DNA of 64,000 bases, taken from assembly GCA_049513715.1 (NCBI GenBank), contig JBEKVV010000004.1, forward strand, positions 96,001 to 160,000. The letters run 5' to 3'. The notes under the pieces are model-generated. The model worked only from the letters and a program-made list of their open reading frames with translations, ran no database searches and was not told the origin of the DNA. Shown piece after piece: positions 1-48,656 of the stretch. The first letter of the stretch is position 1, and the number at the start of each line of letters is the position of its first letter. Both the position numbers and the translations under genes were made by a program. This stretch comes from Candidatus Bathyarchaeia archaeon. GTDB lineage: Archaea > Thermoproteota > Bathyarchaeia > 40CM-2-53-6.

Positions 1-448
1 TGATTAGTTCCACTACTTTTCGCACAGCCCGCTCAACCACAAGTGACATGGCTGCCCCTTCGTCGAAGCATTTCCCCTCGATACCATAGACAATAAGCCT
101 CTGGGGGAGCTGGTTCATGACTCTAGCTAGTTCGATCGCTTGTGGAACGCCGAAGGCATGCGTTGAGTAATGAAACATGCTCGCTGGGAGCGGTGAGTTG
201 TGAGCCTCGTACCTGTGAATGTGTCCATGCTCGGCTCCGGATTTTACTGCGTCAACGAGTATTGTGACTTGCGAACTCTTCCACAATTCCATAAGACGTG
301 CTCCTTCGCCAGACTCCTCGACGCTATTGCATTGATGGGGAAGTCTTTCTCTCACTCCACTCGCAACACGCAAACCGACTTCATCATCACCGCGAATTTC
401 GTTTCCCACCCCGATCACGAGAACGCGTGAGTCATTCGAGCCCACCAA
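1..448 (-). CDS. hydrogenase maturation protease (3' end runs off window)
   Basis: Manual translation, not in ORF track: VLVIGVGNEIRGDDEVG...ILVDAV...STHAFG...LIVYGIEG; directly follows hydrogenase large subunit. Confidence 0.9.
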   Translation of the reverse strand, partial: MVGSNDSRVLVIGVGNEIRGDDEVGLRVASGVRERLPHQCNSVEESGEGARLMELWKSSQVTILVDAVKSGAEHGHIHRYEAHNSPLPASMFHYSTHAFGVPQAIELARVMNQLPQRLIVYGIEGKCFDEGAAMSLVVERAVRKVVELI

Positions 449-450
449 CT

Positions 451-1743
451 CTACTCCCTCTCTATTTTGAGTTTCAAGTAATGGGTTGCGCAGGAGATGC
501 AGGGATCGTAATTGCGTATGAGTTGCTCGCACTGCCACGTAAGCTTGTCCGTCGACAGCCTAATGTTTTCTTCCACGAAATGCTTCAGGTCTTCCTCGAT
601 TCCGCTTTGGTTCTGGGATGTGGGTGGCACGATTTTGGCATTGAGTATGATGCCGTTGTCGTCGATGGTGTATCGGTGGTAGAGTATTCCGCGAGGTGCC
701 TCAGTGCAGCCATAACCTGTACCTCCGTGCGGATGGATTTGTACTGCGGGCTCGAGTGGTGGTGTGTATTGCTTTATGATGCGCAATGCTTCATCGCATG
801 CGTGGAGGGTTTCCACGCTGCGTGCGATGATGCTTTTGAAGGGGTTTCGGCAGGTTGGCTTCAACCCTGCCTGCCTCGCGGCCTTCTGTGCCGATGAAGA
901 CAGCTTATCGAAGTTCAGGTTGAAGCGGGCCATCGGGCCTGTGATGTAGGCTCCGCCGTTTTTCATGTGACCGTGAAGGGCGTTGGAATGTGCAACATGT
1001 TCCTCTATGAAATTGTCTTCGTAGTCGTTTACGGCGATGTCCAAACCACTGCTTGAAACCAAACGCCCCTCGTTGAACGGGTACTCGTCTGGGTGCCGTA
1101 GGGCTACGTATTCGTAGTCTTGTTCAAAGTCGGGGAACTTGAAGCCTGCTACCCAACGAACGGTCTCTTCTGCGGCCTTGCGTGCCCACTTCAACTCCTC
1201 AACAATCGGAGCTATTTCATCTTTGGTTGGGACCTTGTAGAAACCGCCCACCCGAACGTTAATCGGATGAATCTCCCTTCCACCGAGAAGCGAAACTAAC
1301 GCATTACCGATTTTCTTGAGCCGCAGTCCTCTCTGAACAATTTGGGGGTTGTCTCGTGCAATTTGGAGGACGTTGTCGTACCCTAGGAAGTCGGGTGCAT
1401 GAAGCATGTAAATGTGCAGTGCGTGGCTCTCGATCCATTCCCCGCAGTAGATTAACCGGCGTAGGTCACGGAGGGAGCCTTTGACTTGGACGCCACAGGC
1501 GTTCTCCATTGCATGAACCGCGCTCATCTGATAGGCGATGGGGCATATGCCGCAGATTCGCGCAGTGATATCTGGCGCCTCTGTGAAATGGCGGCCGCGT
1601 AGGAACGCTTCGAAGAACCGGGGTGGCTCGTAGATTCTGAGCTTAGCGTCAGTGACCTTTCTGCCCTGAATCTTTAGATTTAGTGCGCCTTCGCCTTCTA
1701 CTCGCGCGAGAGCGTCCACGTCGATGGTTCTACTTGCTGGCAT
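451..1743 (-). CDS. hydA: group 3b [NiFe]-hydrogenase large (alpha) subunit
   Basis: RVEGEG, RICGIC (L1), DPCISCATH (L2) with C-terminal extension. Confidence 0.95.
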
Positions 1744-2512
1744 GTGACTCGCTCTCCTTTCTGAATGGTTCAGCGTACGCGTTGAATGTGCGGAATGCCC
1801 GCAAGATATCTTCGCCCTTCATGCCCAGATGTGCCAACCAATTGCTCATTGAGCCTGTGTTCGGCGTCTCCATTGGGCCGAAACATGCGTAGCAACCACG
1901 GTTGTAGCTGGGGCAGATTGCACCGCAGCCGGCTTGCGTTACTGGCCCAAGGCAGGGTGTGCCATGAGCAACCATGACGCATGTGGTTCCACGCAGCTTG
2001 CACTCCATACAAACGCTGCTCGTGGGAATGTTCGGCCTACGCGCGTTCAGAGTTGCGTTGATGACCTCAAGTAGCTGGTTCTTGTTGATTGGGCAGCCGC
2101 GTAATTCGAAGTCAACCTGAACATGTTCACTGATTGGGGTCGACGTGCTCAGGGTGTCTATGTATTCTGGTTTGGCGTATACGGCGGAGATGAACTCCTT
2201 GACGTCTTTGAAGTTGCGAAGTGCTTGAATGCCACCGGCCGTTGCGCATGCGCCAATGGTGACAAGTAGCTTGGATTCCTGGCGAGCCTTTTGGATCCGT
2301 TCAATGTCGTGCGCCGTTGTGATGGAGCCCTCTACGAGTGAAACATCGTATGGTCCTCTGGTTACGGCGCTTGATGCTTCTAGGAAGTATGATATGTTAA
2401 CCTCACCAGCCAGGGAAAGCAACTCGTCCTCGCAGTCCAAGATGCTGAGCTGGCAGCCGTCGCAAGATGAGAACTTCCAAACGGCAAGTTTGGGTTTCTG
2501 TTTATTAGACAT
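1730..2512 (-). CDS. hydD: group 3b hydrogenase small (delta) subunit
   Basis: SSCDGC, GACA..GG, GCP, CLGP motifs; start reassigned to MSNKQ at 2512. Confidence 0.92.
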
Positions 2513-2513
2513 C

Positions 2514-3353
2514 CTAAATCTCCCTCTTTGATAGGAATGGTTGGATCTGGTCGTATCGGAAGACTGGGCCGTCCTTGCAGACGAATACGGATCCGAGCTG
2601 GCAGTGGCCGCAGAGTCCATTGCCGCACTTCATGTTGCGTTCCATGGAGACGAAGATGTTTTCTGTGGTGACGCCGCGATTCTGGAGTTCTAGGATTGTG
2701 AAACGGGTCATGATTTCTGGCCCACAGATGAACGCCTTCGTATGCTGAGGGTCGAAGTTGGCCCTTGGAATGAGTGTAGTCACCACGCCAACATTTCCAT
2801 GCCACCCAGGTTTTGCAGTGTCCACAGTTGTTTCGACGTCTATGTCGAATCGGGCTCGCCATCGTTTAAGCTCGGTTGTGTAGAGCATGTCTTGCGGCGT
2901 CCTCGCTCCGTAAAGGAGAACAATTCGCCCGTAATGCTCGCGATTAGCGAGCAGTTGGTAGATTGCTGGGCGCAACGGGGGTAGCCCGACGCCCCCCGTA
3001 ACTATGAGCACAGCATGCCCGACCGAGTCTTCAACGGGCCAATGCGTTCCGTAAGGACCCCGAACAGTGACTTCTTCGCCTTTCTTTAGGAGGCATAATG
3101 CTCTGCTCACCGCACCCACTGATCTTATTGTGTGAATCAGCCTCTCTGGTTTTGTGGGGTCACCGCTGATTGAGACTGGGACTTCGCCAACCCCGAACCC
3201 GTACACCATATTGAACTGTCCCGGGGTAAATGAGAAGTCGTCATGGTCATCGACCGGCTCAAATTCAAGGGTCCAAGTGTCGTATGTTTCCTGGTTGGAT
3301 TGTTGAACGCGGTAAATGCGGGGAAGAATGGACTCGGTGGAGAGTGGTTTCAT
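2514..3353 (-). CDS. hydG: group 3b hydrogenase gamma subunit (FAD/NAD(P)-binding, 2Fe-2S)
   Basis: [30 protein letters not shown]...CKDGP. Confidence 0.92.
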
Positions 3354-3360
3354 GATGGCC

Positions 3361-3822
3361 CTATCCGCCCTCGTCGTACAGGTCCAAGAGTTGTAGTCGT
3401 GTGGCCTGTAGCCTCTGTATCATGACTGCGGAGAATCTCTTCATCAGCTCGTAGCCCAGGTCGTGGTCTTCTTCACACTTCTTGCGCAAGCATTTGCCGT
3501 CGAGGCTAATGGCCCGCGTGAGTTCGATTGCTCTCGCACCAAAGTGCACGTGGTAAGGCGGAAAGAGCCATGACCAGCCTAGCACGTCTCCATTTGTAAG
3601 AGTCTGGATTGTAATCGCTCCACGTTTTGGTGAGAAGGCCTCAATGGCGACTTTGCCTTCGCGTATGACGAAGAAGTTGTTCGCCTCATCCCCCTCTCGG
3701 TACAGAGATTCTTCTTGCTCAAAGCGGACGTTTGATGCGCAGCCCGCTAGGAATTGTAGCTGTTGCGGTTTTAGGCCTTTGAAGAATGGGTGGTCGGCGA
3801 GCACCACGTCAAGCGTTTTCAA
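3361..3822 (-). CDS. stand-alone cyclic-nucleotide-binding (Crp-type) domain protein
   Basis: [18 protein letters not shown]...GDVLGWSWL cNMP fold, no HTH. Confidence 0.85.
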
Positions 3823-4963: not shown

Positions 4964-5252
4964 TTGCCCACAGCTCGCCCAAAATGGCACGTTTCTGTAT
5001 GAAGCAGGCTAACCTTTTCGGCTGATTTCCTCCATTGAATCCCTGCTTGGAAACGGTTGCAGGGGGAATCTTAGGGCATTGTGGTCTGTGGAATGTTCTA
5101 TCATTTTCACTAGGAATGCTGTTGCGGACCAACTAGACAAAATGAACCGGCTGCCCATCTGACCTGACTCGCCACGAGGGATTCTTACAGAACTAGGCTT
5201 AATAATCGGAATAAAATTCGATGCATGCGCGTCAGTTCAGTAGGCCTATCGC

Positions 5253-6034
5253 TTGGAAACTAGTTCGAATTTCGTTGAACATAATGAGGCATTGAAGAAA
5301 GAGGGCCTACGCATAATCTCCGAGGGCAACAAGCGTGGGTTTCACTTACGCCTTCTTGGCGCAATAGCATTCCAGACCCACTGTCCCAAGTATGACTACT
5401 TCACGCTGAAACTAAGAAGAATGCCCTCAGACGTCGACTTCGTAGGCTATGCAAAGGAGAATCAGCTAGTCACCAGTATGATGCGAGAGCTGGGTTATGC
5501 TGACCAACCGATGATCACCGCTCTCTGGGGAGATAGGCGAACCATCTGGGACCACCAAACGAACGGAACCCACGTTGACATTTTCTTTGAAAGTATGAGA
5601 TGAACCACAACATTCCTTTCACAAATCGACTTGAACTCGAACCATTCACGATTTCCCTTGCAGACATGCTCCTGGAGAAGATGCAGATAGTTCACATCAA
5701 CGAAAAAGACATCATAGACACGATAATGCTACTGCGCGAACATGAGATTGGGTATGAGAATGCTGCAGAGACGATAGACGCACGGTACATCGTCGGCCTA
5801 CTCTCCAAAGACTGGGGCTTTTACTACACCTTTACAACAAACCTCGCCAAAGTGAGAGAGAAAACCGCAGCTACCAAAGAATTAAGCGAAGACGATCGAG
5901 CAGATGTGAACAGGAAGATTCAGAAATTAGCTGATATTCTTGAAAAAGAGCCGAAGACGTTCGCTTGGAAGATGAGAGCCAAGATTGGAACGAAGAACAA
6001 GTGGTATAAGGATGTAGAAGAGATTAGGCGCTAA
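5253..6034 (+). pseudogene. nucleotidyltransferase-family protein split by a frameshift near 5590
   Basis: LLGAIA...SDVDF (NTase motif) in ORF 5253-5603 continues as MNHNIPF...LADMLLEKMQ...EKD in ORF 5600-6034. Confidence 0.65.
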
Positions 6035-16905: not shown

Positions 16906-17283
16906 CTTGACGGCTCATCCTCAACGAGTTTCAGGTATGGTACAATAAGGGCTGATTAAGTCAACGGTTTGACTCTCAGAATCAACAGGATGTAATTGAG
17001 CAATGAACCACGGGGCTGCAGACTGCCCGAGTTCTGCCTCTCAGAAATGCTGTCTATGACTGCCGCTCTCTCTACCTGTCTTCACAGCGTTTAGGAACTC
17101 AATGCATGCGGACTGATTGTTGCCTGATTTTCCTCTAATCACCGCATCATTCCTAGATTGGGATTTGGTCATCCGTGCCCGTCGCGGCAACAAGCCGATC
17201 CTCGTGGCAAGTAATCCACTGGCAAGAACTTCATTTCCCTTGGAACCGCAACTCCCATATCGTTGGAATGACAAGTATAGTAC

Positions 17284-17510
17284 GCTGCCTAACCGAGACA
17301 GGGGTAGATTCGTCGGTCGGCTTCGTCCCAGGGTTTGCCTTGGGTCGCATTGTGGATCGATGAGCGCTCGGGTGTAACGTCACGACGCTAGCGGGAAACC
17401 GTAGAAACTCCGTGAGGCCCGAGTGAGGGAAAACCAAGGCGGAGGATGGAGGGAAAGGTCGAATGTCCCTCGCGAAGGGAAAGCCACATCTGCCTCGAGA
17501 GTTAGGCAGC
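17284..17510 (+). ncRNA. structured ncRNA closed by a BHB motif; predicted 200-nt circular RNA (17300-17499)
   Basis: 10-bp outer helix GCTGCCTAAC/GTTAGGCAGC, central CGAG/CTCG, bulges ACA and AGA; nested helices and GNRA loops. Confidence 0.75.
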
Positions 17511-18163
17511 TAACTTCTTACTTTCTCCCACGTAGCCAACAAAGCTTCTTCATAGGTTTCAGGGTCCACCTCCCTTGCTCTACGCATATCGACATCAATG
17601 AAGAAGAGCGAGTGAACTCTGCCTGAAGCTATCTCCTCCAAGGGTATGGGCGGATTCTCGTAGTAGCGGTCGCACAGCTTCTTCGTCTTCTCAATCTCTT
17701 CTCGTTCTCTCACTTTTGGAGGTTTCAGGAAAAGTGCGGGGATTGGCAGAACTTGGTAGAGAGGGGAGGCCAGGCTGAACTTGTCCGCGAACCTGCTGTA
17801 CCTCGCTATCTTGCTGGCAATTCTGGCCGAACAAAATGCAGTAGGATCCAACGCGTGCTCCGGAGGAACAAACCCAGTCTCTATTTCTATAACCGCTCTT
17901 CCATCGCCCTTGATCCCCAACAAATCGCAGACAAGGGATTCTCCCAAGCGATGCTCAACATCTACATCATAGCCCTTCAAGATCAAATCTTTGGCGCAGA
18001 TAAATTCCATGGCCGAGTGGTTGATCTTCACCAGATTTTGTCTGTGCATCTTAACCAGCTTCGTCTTTATGGCGTCGAGCTTGAAGAATGCCTCATCGTT
18101 CTGGTCAGGGACCAGTTTTGAGAGAAGAGCATCGAGGTCGGATGCGAACTTGTCGTCGCCCAT
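17510..18163 (-). CDS. conserved archaeal hypothetical protein, PD-(D/E)xK-like
   Basis: GYDVDVEH...CDLLG...IEIETG pattern. Confidence 0.7.
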   Translation of the reverse strand: MGDDKFASDLDALLSKLVPDQNDEAFFKLDAIKTKLVKMHRQNLVKINHSAMEFICAKDLILKGYDVDVEHRLGESLVCDLLGIKGDGRAVIEIETGFVPPEHALDPTAFCSARIASKIARYSRFADKFSLASPLYQVLPIPALFLKPPKVREREEIEKTKKLCDRYYENPPIPLEEIASGRVHSLFFIDVDMRRAREVDPETYEEALLATWEKVRS

Positions 18164-38752: not shown

Positions 38753-39331
38753 CTAGACATGTAGTGGGGTCAGCGTATAGTATACTATATCCGTGCGTCG
38801 GTCAACCACCGCTAGGATCAGTTCCTTCTTCTCCCGTTCTGCGATCGTCAGAAGCTTTTCCAGTTTCCGCAGGCTCGCCTCTCCGCCCTCGTAAACGATG
38901 GATATGAGTCGCCTGAGTGGACCTTTTCCGTAAATATCGAAATCAAAGTTTCCACCGGATTCTCTGACAATATAACCCCTATCTCTCAGATCCCGATAGA
39001 CTAAGTATTTGATCCAGATTTCGGGTTTGACGAGGGAGAATTTCCTGACGAGGTCTCGCAAGTTAACTTCTTTTTCGTCCTTCTTTGTAGAGACGTGGAT
39101 TTTCTGTTTCTCGATGAGGTAGAAGGACTCGTAGGGTGTGAAGTAGAGTCTGTCCTTCTTGAGGTCTCCGAACCCCCTGTCCCGGAGTTCCATGAGGTCA
39201 GATTTGTAGGGTATGTACACACCGTGCGCATCAGAGAATGCGCTCCAAGGGGTAAACTGAGGCTTCTCCTCCGCTTGAATAGGAGGTTTGGCACTCTGCG
39301 GAGGCGGCGCGCTATTCTCCATGAAGACCAC
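38753..39331 (-). CDS. endA: tRNA-splicing endonuclease, structural (beta) subunit
   Basis: YLVYRDLRDRGYIV, LILAVVD....VYY; catalytic Tyr (KYG) and His absent. Confidence 0.85.
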   Translation of the reverse strand: MVFMENSAPPPQSAKPPIQAEEKPQFTPWSAFSDAHGVYIPYKSDLMELRDRGFGDLKKDRLYFTPYESFYLIEKQKIHVSTKKDEKEVNLRDLVRKFSLVKPEIWIKYLVYRDLRDRGYIVRESGGNFDFDIYGKGPLRRLISIVYEGGEASLRKLEKLLTIAEREKKELILAVVDRRTDIVYYTLTPLHV

Positions 39332-48550: not shown

Positions 48551-48656
48551 GCCCTGGTCGTTCAGTGGTCTAGGATGACGGCCTGTCACGTCGTCGACGC
48601 GGGTTCGAATCCCGCCCAAAGGAGCGGAAAGAATCTTCTCCTGGCGAGGGGCGCCA
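48551..48656 (+). tRNA. tRNA-Asp(GTC) with a BHB intron at 68/69 (acceptor stem)
   Basis: Removing 48619-48648 restores GCCCTGG/CCAGGGC plus GCCA (76 nt); TTTAAA about 30 nt upstream. Confidence 0.92.

Follow-up and report, generated by a model that had tools for sequence, protein, structure and literature searches.

The window analyzed here is a stretch of 64,000 nt from the genome of Candidatus Bathyarchaeia archaeon (assembly GCA_049513715.1, contig JBEKVV010000004.1, positions 96,001 to 160,000 of the forward strand), and the subject of the analysis is an RNA element at positions 17284-17510 of its plus strand. An earlier note, made from the sequence alone, had proposed that a motif of the bulge-helix-bulge (BHB) type at this place releases a circular noncoding RNA. 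We found the predicted joint of a 200-nt ring in RNA contigs from three of four runs, and both the BHB motif and the hairpin at the ring junction are conserved with covariation in 28 distinct homologs. The best explanation of the data as a whole, to which we assign a probability of about 0.85, is a dedicated gene whose transcript is matured into a ring by the tRNA-splicing machinery; this route of biogenesis, with the ring as the selected product, is if anything slightly more certain.

In the proposed mechanism, an RNA gene that stands alone and is driven by an archaeal promoter of its own would give rise to a precursor of roughly 230 nt with its two ends paired, and the closing region would fold into the BHB motif. 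The two 3-nt bulges would then each be cut behind their second nucleotide by the tRNA-splicing endonuclease, which in this lineage is of the heteromeric type (two EndA-domain subunits), and RtcB would seal the excised piece into the 200-nt ring, the short "exons" (16 nt and a tail) being waste or a small hairpin. The design would include a helix switch: CUC 17494-17496 would first pair with GAG 17295-17297, building the cutting site, and after cutting would re-pair with GGG 17301-17303. The stem P2 would thereby grow to 9 bp and be capped by a GNRA tetraloop, GAG/A (the slash marks the ligation site here and below), which contains the new phosphodiester bond.

Cutting site and ring joint

The elements of the cutting site and of the junction stem are the following (all on the plus strand).

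17284-17293 (+): outer helix P1, 5' strand, GCTGCCTAAC; 10 Watson-Crick pairs; predicted discarded 5' "exon"
17294-17297 (+): central helix H, 5' strand, CGAG; 4 bp; predicted to be discarded
17298-17300 (+): 5' bulge, ACA; predicted cut after 17299, the ring keeping A17300
17301-17309 (+): P2, 5' strand, GGGGTAGAT; 17301-17303 compete with 17295-17297 for the partners 17494-17496
17488-17496 (+): P2, 3' strand, ATCTGCCTC; pairs with 17301-17309 and overlaps the 3' strand of H
17494-17497 (+): central helix H, 3' strand, CTCG; predicted to be retained in the ring, where CUC lengthens P2 and G17497 starts the tetraloop
17498-17500 (+): 3' bulge, AGA; predicted cut after 17499, so that G17497-A17498-G17499 and A17300 form the GNRA loop across the ligation site
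17501-17510 (+): outer helix P1, 3' strand, GTTAGGCAGC; 3' "exon" predicted to be discarded; a T-rich stretch comes next
17300-17499 (+): excised, circularized RNA of 200 nt; predicted conserved product, with its back-joint found in RNA contigs

Direct reading of the sequence agrees with the earlier note on the 10-bp outer helix, the 4-bp central helix and the two 3-nt bulges. Both bulges lie 3' of their own H strand, on opposite strands. By our own derivation from the 37/38 intron position this stagger is that expected of the archaeal tRNA intron type, and the geometry is that of the plus strand, as the note had also stated.

A run search with a query of 501 bases returned 24 rows, 20 of which are recorded as RNA, and none of the rows held more than 0.34 of the query words. 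Four RNA runs from four studies, all in the form of assembled contigs, were compared with 17150-17650. The joint that goes back 200 nt from 17499 to 17300, with the junction CTCGAG/AGGGG forecast in the earlier note, was present in three of the four, coming from three independent metatranscriptome studies. The freshwater and the soil run have one contig each with the joint (side 31 in both), and the compost run has one contig of 230 letters (side 105), which is composed of 17300-17404 and 17375-17499, that is, one lap of 200 nt plus an overlap of 30. No other letters are present in this contig, nor in the joined pieces generally. In a second version of the joint A replaces G17499, and a loose end TCTGCCTCGAA stands before 17300, both being the sequence of close relatives; since the variant joint matches these relatives, their RNAs have been joined in the same way.

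All aligned pieces lie inside 17300-17501. The flanks 17150-17285 and 17507-17650 have zero cover in the four runs, which carries no weight as evidence. In the soil run, which comprises 19 million letters, the depth is about 58-740 per covered bin; this suggests that the RNA is abundant, contig depth being a poor measure.

Conservation, fold and transcription

The homologs belong to Bathyarchaeia and Nitrososphaeria, and the rings predicted for the 28 sequences are 192-210 nt long. The final alignment of these sequences was fitted to the structure of a covariance model built from seven sequences (R1), and its counts are thus biased towards that structure; H is absent from the model and hence gains nothing from the fitting. 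Over the whole fold 94.8% of the cells are paired, compensatory changes are seen in 53 of 61 pairs, and none of 500 shuffles equaled any of the measures. With the partners slid by 1-3 columns as a control, only 34-39% of the cells are paired. For H, all 112 cells are paired and covariation (GC/AU/GU) is seen at three of the four pairs; the ten pairs of P1 are formed in 98.9% of the cells, with compensatory change in nine of them. The P2 extension (columns 18-22 with 304-308) is formed in 139 of 140 cells, also with compensatory changes, and is mutually exclusive with H, positions 17494-17496 being common to both. Sequence conservation ends sharply at 17284 and 17510.

The nucleotides around the predicted cuts fall into two groups. 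There are no insertions or deletions in the H or bulge columns (15-17 and 310-312) in any of the 28 homologs. Those that would be retained are fixed: G309, A310 and A17 are present in all 28 sequences and column 311 is a purine, which gives a G-A-R/A tetraloop across the ligation site in every homolog (GAAA in 15, GAGA in 13). Those that would be discarded are free, the middle of the 5' bulge (column 16) being C in 7, A in 6, T in 6 and G in 9 sequences and the last position of the 3' bulge (column 312) A in 13 and T in 15. This split would be expected if the cuts follow the second bulge nucleotide and the ligated ring is the selected product, and it strongly suggests that the active form is the ring and not the precursor. 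Conservation further indicates that the cutting site and the hairpin made by ligation are both under selection.

Inside the ring, the following elements are found.

17310-17363 (+): arm P3/P3b, formed by 17310-17317/17356-17363 and the hairpin 17324-17333/17338-17347
17365-17425 (+): arm P4, formed by 17365-17373/17417-17425 with a GNRA-capped inner hairpin, GCGG-GAAA-CCGU, at 17391-17402
17425-17434 (+): junction motif GAGGGAAAAC (consensus G-A-G-G-G-N-N-A-A-C), mostly unpaired; contains GG 17427-17428, the 5' strand of P5
17438-17474 (+): variable arm P6 (helix 10)
17479-17489 (+): conserved motif GAAAGCCACAT (family consensus GAAAGCCACAU), 23-28 of 28 per column; contains CC 17484-17485, the 3' strand of P5

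In the family fold the closing stem is made up of P1, followed by H or the P2 extension and finally by P2, and there are three arms (P3/P3b, P4 and P5/P6); the ring would be a four-armed molecule (P2, P3, P4 and P5/P6) with two near-invariant junction strands. In P3/P3b (helices 4 and 5), 95.4% and 95.6% of the cells are paired, with compensatory change in 7 of 8 and 8 of 9 pairs; the corresponding values for P4 (helices 6-8) are 92.9%, 89.2% and 97.1% of cells, and for P6 87.5% with compensatory change in all ten pairs. The majority base of the successive columns of 17425-17434 occurs in 26, 25, 28, 27, 28, 15, 18, 28, 28 and 27 of the 28 sequences. We envisage a stable, structured RNA without ends that would act through its invariant junction strands and GNRA loops.

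Folding energies are consistent with this arrangement. The plus strand folds at -100.1 kcal/mol (z -3.94; none of 200 shuffles was as good) and the minus strand at -80.2 kcal/mol (z -2.98). The minimum free energy of the circular 200-nt RNA is -79.2 kcal/mol, and this fold contains the 9-bp junction stem with the GAG/A loop that the earlier note had drawn. Of the three nested helices in that note, CGCTCGGG/CCCGAGTG is kept in the relatives (211 of 224 cells paired), whereas TCGGCTT/AGGTCGA (104 of 196 cells, 53%) and TTTGCCTTGG/CCAAGGCGGA (188 of 280 cells, 67%) give way to local hairpins there. On visual inspection, a loop-junction pseudoknot GGUUU/AAACC is present in Bathyarchaeia but has not been maintained in Nitrososphaeria, and it was rejected.

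The RNA is distributed sporadically. BLAST and covariance model R1 found full-length homologs in eight of the 105 genomes of the order: in the genus they occur in the genome of the window (G000) and in four of 22 other genomes, and two further families of the order have them as well. Of 150 other genomes sampled evenly from the phylum, one (G132) was found to have the RNA. The order and phylum counts are lower bounds, as the filters were strict and only part of the candidates was scored. There is a single copy in G000, and all genome assemblies show the unjoined order with both flanks. Sixteen of 80 loci centered on the neighboring protein gene (see below), taken from a species-level genome collection, have the RNA within 2.5 kb: three from Bathyarchaeia, five of the Nitrosocaldus type and eight from other Nitrososphaeria. 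An nhmmer profile of a 20-sequence alignment added only one locus, L028. An RNA-first pattern scan of metagenome contigs gave 118 loci; in nine of them nhmmer identified full-length homologs and in eight others only short weak matches (E 1e-4 to 6e-4). An estimated 680 or so metagenome stretches carry the pattern, mostly by chance. BLAST matches of 24-33 nt in G010, G025, G093 and G033 (E about 0.005-0.007) were not regained by the covariance model and were discarded. The most divergent Bathyarchaeia homolog is that of G132 (contig C6, 95999-96227, equivalent to L245 1501-1729 on the minus strand; 94.5 bits); its outer helix is shorter, and its P2 extension contains two mismatches.

The element probably has its own promoter, with this box in the window:

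17254-17262 (+): degenerate TATA-like box CCCATATC (cccatatcg), found by eye about 22-29 nt before the outer helix begins

The earlier remark that there is no clear TATA box was thus wrong or incomplete, as the window has this degenerate box and relatives have a strong one at a fixed distance: in all 15 Nitrososphaeria loci shown, a box resembling the B recognition element (BRE) and TATA box (aaaGTTTATATC / TTTAAAT type) ends 21-25 nt before P1 (by eye). In three Bathyarchaeia loci this position is occupied by AAAAGTATAAATA, and the closest relatives of the window share the degenerate CCCATATC. T-rich runs are visible by eye 3' of P1. These features point to an independent transcription unit starting at about 17284 or just before, in which the BHB motif would close the RNA rather than free it from a longer message.

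The short open reading frames (ORFs) that overlap or abut the RNA gene, 17041-17274 (-), 17117-17377 (+), 17231-17437 (-) and 17423-17626 (+), are probably not genes, and the 77-aa ORF has no counterpart in seven other homologous loci. No ORF of the plus strand spans the ring: every plus frame has stops, the longest open stretch being 53 codons. As for the machinery, the genome contains two matches of the tRNA_int_endo domain (84.4 bits on contig C1 and 54.6 bits in the window) and encodes RtcB (578 bits). The match in the window lies at about 38780-39019 (-), in an open frame of 226 aa, 21 kb from the RNA gene.

Several observations limit the reading given above or weigh against it. The perfect motif of 10 bp, 4 bp and two 3-nt bulges occurs 106 times in the genome of 2,793,248 bases (spans 40-3500, both strands), four times with a span below 300 nt, and contig C4 has 10 such motifs vs 5-10 in five shuffles. 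The bare motif is not commoner than chance, and the element is regarded as real because of its conservation and the RNA joint, not because of the motif alone. Moreover, the word "perfect" in the earlier note is slightly generous for the inner helix h' beside the 5' bulge, for which 1 bp is possible in Bathyarchaeia and 2 bp in Nitrososphaeria. Its first pair (columns 18-305) is formed in all 28 homologs; the second (columns 19-304) is formed in 16, that is, in 15 Nitrososphaeria and, as one G-U pair, in L207, and is unformed in the other 12 Bathyarchaeia, the window included. Because this inner helix is minimal, the motif appears to be a slightly relaxed BHB. The BHB has been defined as a 4-bp helix with two flanking 3-nt bulges, and the heteromeric endonuclease of TACK archaea tolerates a broader or relaxed range of motifs (PMC7714728).

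A motif of the same kind elsewhere in G000 (contig C1, 864440-867470, plus strand; perfect 10 + 4 bp) spans 3031 nt, the size of 23S rRNA, and may be a pre-rRNA processing stem.

Further adverse points concern the RNA itself, and some of them bear on an alternative in which a linear 227-nt transcript with a long stem and an internal loop is functional, the back-joints being artefacts (template switching, repeat assembly) or rare by-products. The minimum-free-energy fold of the precursor is the P2-extension form and not the BHB, which, if forced, has -95.7 kcal/mol, a cost of 4.4. The fourth run (X7) has one contig, 17328-17501, without the joint, whose last two letters fit the precursor or the ring. 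The contigs show that the joined form exists and not which share is circular, and head-to-tail multimers are compatible with them. Neither is the exact cut position fixed by the contig data: 17300-17301 is identical to 17500-17501, so that the joint may equally sit up to 2 nt further on. EndA and RtcB, finally, both encoded in the genome, are the putative enzymes acting on the precursor. On the other side, the joint was predicted from the BHB and then found in three studies in contigs identical to the window, and no aligned piece of RNA reaches into P1. The complete pairing of H, with covariation, is maintained despite its competition with P2, and the tetraloop nucleotides that come together only upon ligation are invariant, while their discarded neighbors vary freely. 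We consider a functional linear transcript very unlikely.

The neighboring 217-aa protein

As pointed out in the earlier note, the 3' end of the RNA gene abuts a convergent gene.

17510-18163 (-): gene of a 217-aa protein, convergent with the RNA gene, stop codon at 17510-17512; predicted PD-(D/E)xK-like fold

The protein matches no Pfam or NCBIfam family. Its relatives comprise 2719 clusters at E<=0.001 among 3104 candidates, and the named ones, from Bathyarchaeia, Nitrososphaerales and Nitrosocaldus, are all called "hypothetical". Across 18 diverse members 48 columns are invariant, among them E53, E70, D80, E93, E95 and K118. The AlphaFold2 model has a predicted local distance difference test score of 91.7 and a predicted template modeling score of 0.87, with two of the five models being poor. 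Foldseek with this model found nothing at E<=0.001, the best rows being PD-(D/E)xK proteins with E of 4e-3 at best. VIA-align gave 3dnx_A (Z 9.4, root-mean-square deviation 2.8 over 106 residues), XisH-like 2okf_B (Z 8.8), AF1548 (1y88_A, Z 8.3) and NucS (Z 6.7), values that are middling for this method, where Z below 8 is common. The Protein Atlas contains unnamed archaeal clusters only, and the nearest named family, PDDEXK_14 of phages at 0.86, is a mere lead. The model suggests a putative nuclease-like PD-(D/E)xK protein with predicted catalytic residues. Its predicted fold is similar to that of XisH-like and AF1548-like PD-(D/E)xK proteins, and the family has invariant acidic residues and K118; unlike those proteins, it has extra N-terminal helices and a C-terminal part and matches no sequence family.

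The protein is present in 25 of the 105 genomes of the order, and the eight genomes with the RNA are all among these 25; together with G132, nine of nine whole genomes holding the RNA hold the protein. The two genes are adjacent in all eight loci of the order, in all 16 protein-centered loci with the RNA and in eight of the nine metagenome loci (the ninth contig is too short), some of these loci being the same genomes fetched twice; among the distinct loci that allow a judgement, adjacency is found in 32 of 33. Four arrangements were observed: in Bathyarchaeia the genes are convergent, with the RNA end at the stop codon of the protein gene; in most Nitrososphaeria the RNA lies about 50-100 nt downstream on the same strand; in L075 and L082 it is on the other strand, 1.3 kb upstream and with another gene in between; and in L207 it is upstream on the same strand. 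The other neighboring genes vary between lineages. In a quick tree of the protein, the RNA-linked members form four clades (4 label changes vs a shuffled mean of 24), and those of Bathyarchaeia are grouped in a clade separate from the remaining Bathyarchaeia proteins. Such clustering is likely from kinship alone.

The distribution also bears on the possibility that the element is an intron-like or mobile cassette, whose relevant effect is the spliced 27-nt hairpin on a neighboring message or the spread of the cassette, the ring being a by-product. The patchy occurrence (eight of 105 genomes in the order, four of 22 in the genus and one of 150 in the phylum sample), the separate clade of RNA-linked Bathyarchaeia proteins and the known occurrence of BHB introns in messages (PMC7714728) would fit it. 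However, conservation and covariation lie inside the ring and the "exons" keep pairing only, the promoter-like box stands directly before P1, G000 has a single match, and neither repeats (17100-17700) nor an integrase were seen at the loci. The RNA gene is convergent with the protein gene, downstream of it, upstream of it or apart from it, and there is therefore no single host message. We regard the cassette as hardly probable, about on a par with the linear transcript.

If the ring is a selected product of its own gene, as we propose, it may serve the 217-aa protein as a stable RNA partner (scaffold or regulator), the function that we prefer, tentatively. Somewhat more doubtful still is an RNA subunit of an as yet unseen ribonucleoprotein, in which the ring would control or direct the activity of the PD-(D/E)xK-like nuclease, for example in DNA repair or defense. 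An even chance, and thus a better one than either of these, is given to a ring that is real and selected but independent of the neighboring protein, acting as a platform or sponge or as a structural or catalytic RNA, the adjacency being due to synteny or shared mobility. That every whole genome with the RNA has the protein, that adjacency persists through four arrangements and two classes while the other neighbors change, and that the RNA-linked proteins form whole clades in the quick tree speaks for a partnership. Evidence of the opposite kind comes from the order, where 17 of 25 genomes with the protein have no detectable RNA, and from G132, the sole exception to adjacency, where the two genes are on different contigs. 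Also, the mean charge of RNA-linked proteins (-4.6, n=30) and of the others (-3.5, n=80) is net acidic, with no difference between the groups. The promoter-like box of the RNA gene and the GNRA loops and invariant purine-rich junction strands of the ring, which would suit many partners, likewise favor independence.

The absence of the RNA from protein-only loci was analyzed by several searches. Five protein-only genomes searched whole with lax filters gave no homolog, the rows being one of E 0.18 without a BHB and one of 56 nt in G038 (E 0.73). A strict motif scan of 105 protein loci yielded 31 matches, 22 at known RNA loci and nine chance-like, and a regular expression with two motifs gave the same set. 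The GC profile and cross-comparison of the DNA downstream of RNA-less protein genes identified coding DNA only. At L047 (3090-4300) and similar RNA-less Bathyarchaeia loci this coding DNA is conserved among about 10 loci and, read from the letters alone, resembles a GIY-YIG-type gene with an alkyltransferase-like gene after it.

Four Nitrososphaeria loci (L020, L023, L035 and L082) have a gene for an XPB/Rad25-type helicase at no more than about 1 kb from the protein gene; in L082 it is directly convergent, and in the other three it comes after a rhomboid gene; upstream in the same loci are a JAB-domain gene and mannosyl-3-phosphoglycerate synthase. The helicase hints that the protein may act in DNA repair without the RNA, which would again disfavor a partnership. 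L082, a Nitrososphaera locus, also has an archaeal RNase P RNA gene (5047-5336, plus strand, 178.5 bits), at a distance of about 2 kb from the gene of the protein and about 4 kb from that of the ring RNA.

Were the ribonucleoprotein to exist, archaea would have evolved a "circular-RNA gene" format composed of a promoter, a 27-nt BHB cassette and a GNRA hairpin completed by ligation. The RNA also provides a first handle on a widespread family of nuclease-like proteins that has no name.

Relation to known RNA classes and systems

The ring RNA belongs to no class in the databases searched, all Rfam searches having used the linear form of the RNA. At gathering thresholds, Rfam 15 has a single match in the window, a tRNA at 48551-48623, which ARAGORN finds as well. 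In 601 bases around the element, E<=10 gave one chance row, Ms_IGR-2, with 13 bits vs a gathering threshold of 45 (E 4.2), and at five divergent homologous loci there was no match at the RNA at E<=1. These results are in line with the novelty proposed in the earlier note, and its statement that hallmarks of tRNA, signal recognition particle (SRP) RNA and RNase P RNA are lacking agrees with Rfam and ARAGORN at the locus. A tRNA intron, or a tRNA intronic circular RNA (tricRNA), was rejected, as there is no tRNA at the locus and the joined flanks give a 27-nt hairpin. SRP RNA and RNase P RNA were rejected in the same way: no covariance model matches the linear query, and canonical copies of RNase P RNA (188 bits) and SRP RNA (160 bits) are present elsewhere in the genome, on contig C1. 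C/D box small RNAs, which are circular in some archaea, have a C box RUGAUGA and a D box CUGA; the C box is present in none of the 28 sequences, and CUGA occurs at no conserved place. The RNAs of type III toxin-antitoxin systems consist of tandem repeats upstream of, and co-transcribed with, an endoribonuclease toxin. There are no tandem repeats in 17100-17700, and the RNA is convergent with, downstream of, upstream of or unlinked to the protein gene.

A full-text literature search, which did not cover subscription journals, found no description of the ring RNA. The available part of a paper on circular rRNAs in uncultivated archaea (PMC12918454) mentions no noncoding RNA, and that of a survey of viroid-like covalently closed circular RNAs (10.1101/2022.07.19.500677) mentions no BHB, tRNA or archaeal ring; the supplementary lists of the survey might hold the ring unannotated.

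Four known systems come closest. In the circular permuted SRP RNA of Thermoproteus tenax (PMC4731332) the termini are likewise ligated into a stable functional ring, and ligation completes a functionally placed hairpin. That molecule, however, is a known RNA made circular owing to the permutation of its gene, whereas here the SRP RNA is normal, the ring has no Rfam family and its gene is not a recognizable rearranged copy of another gene. The organism of the window, moreover, is a member of Bathyarchaeia and not Thermoproteus-like. The circular introns excised at BHB motifs and the pre-rRNA circles of archaea (circular-RNA sequencing of Haloferax, PMC7714728) share the motif, the proposed enzymes and the circular product, but the introns are by-products and the pre-rRNA circles intermediates in the production of other RNAs; in our case the flanks are 16 nt and a short tail, and all the conservation is in the ring. 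Metazoan tricRNAs (PMC4536317) are stable circles produced by the tRNA-splicing endonuclease and an RtcB-type ligase, and they arise from introns of real tRNA genes, which are lacking at the present locus. The circular isoforms of IS200/IS605 omega-RNAs (PMC12558985) are archaeal circular noncoding RNAs beside a nuclease gene; the ring has a PD-(D/E)xK-like neighbor instead of a TnpB/RuvC protein and, in an alignment of close relatives inspected by eye, no variable guide-like segment.

In summary, the comparison shows that the route through EndA and RtcB is known already. What is new is a dedicated conserved gene whose sole conserved product is the ring of a new RNA family, and a built-in helix switch that converts the cutting site into a GNRA-capped stem. 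This conserved, structured family occurs in two archaeal classes, which are found widely in soil, peat, sediment and hot springs and include close relatives of ammonia oxidizers. The rings known so far are by-products or repair a permuted gene; here the tRNA-splicing machinery would be the regular maturation route of a dedicated gene. Its compact design, a 27-nt cassette that forms the cutting site and then re-pairs into a GNRA-capped stem, may be seen as a natural blueprint for circular RNAs.

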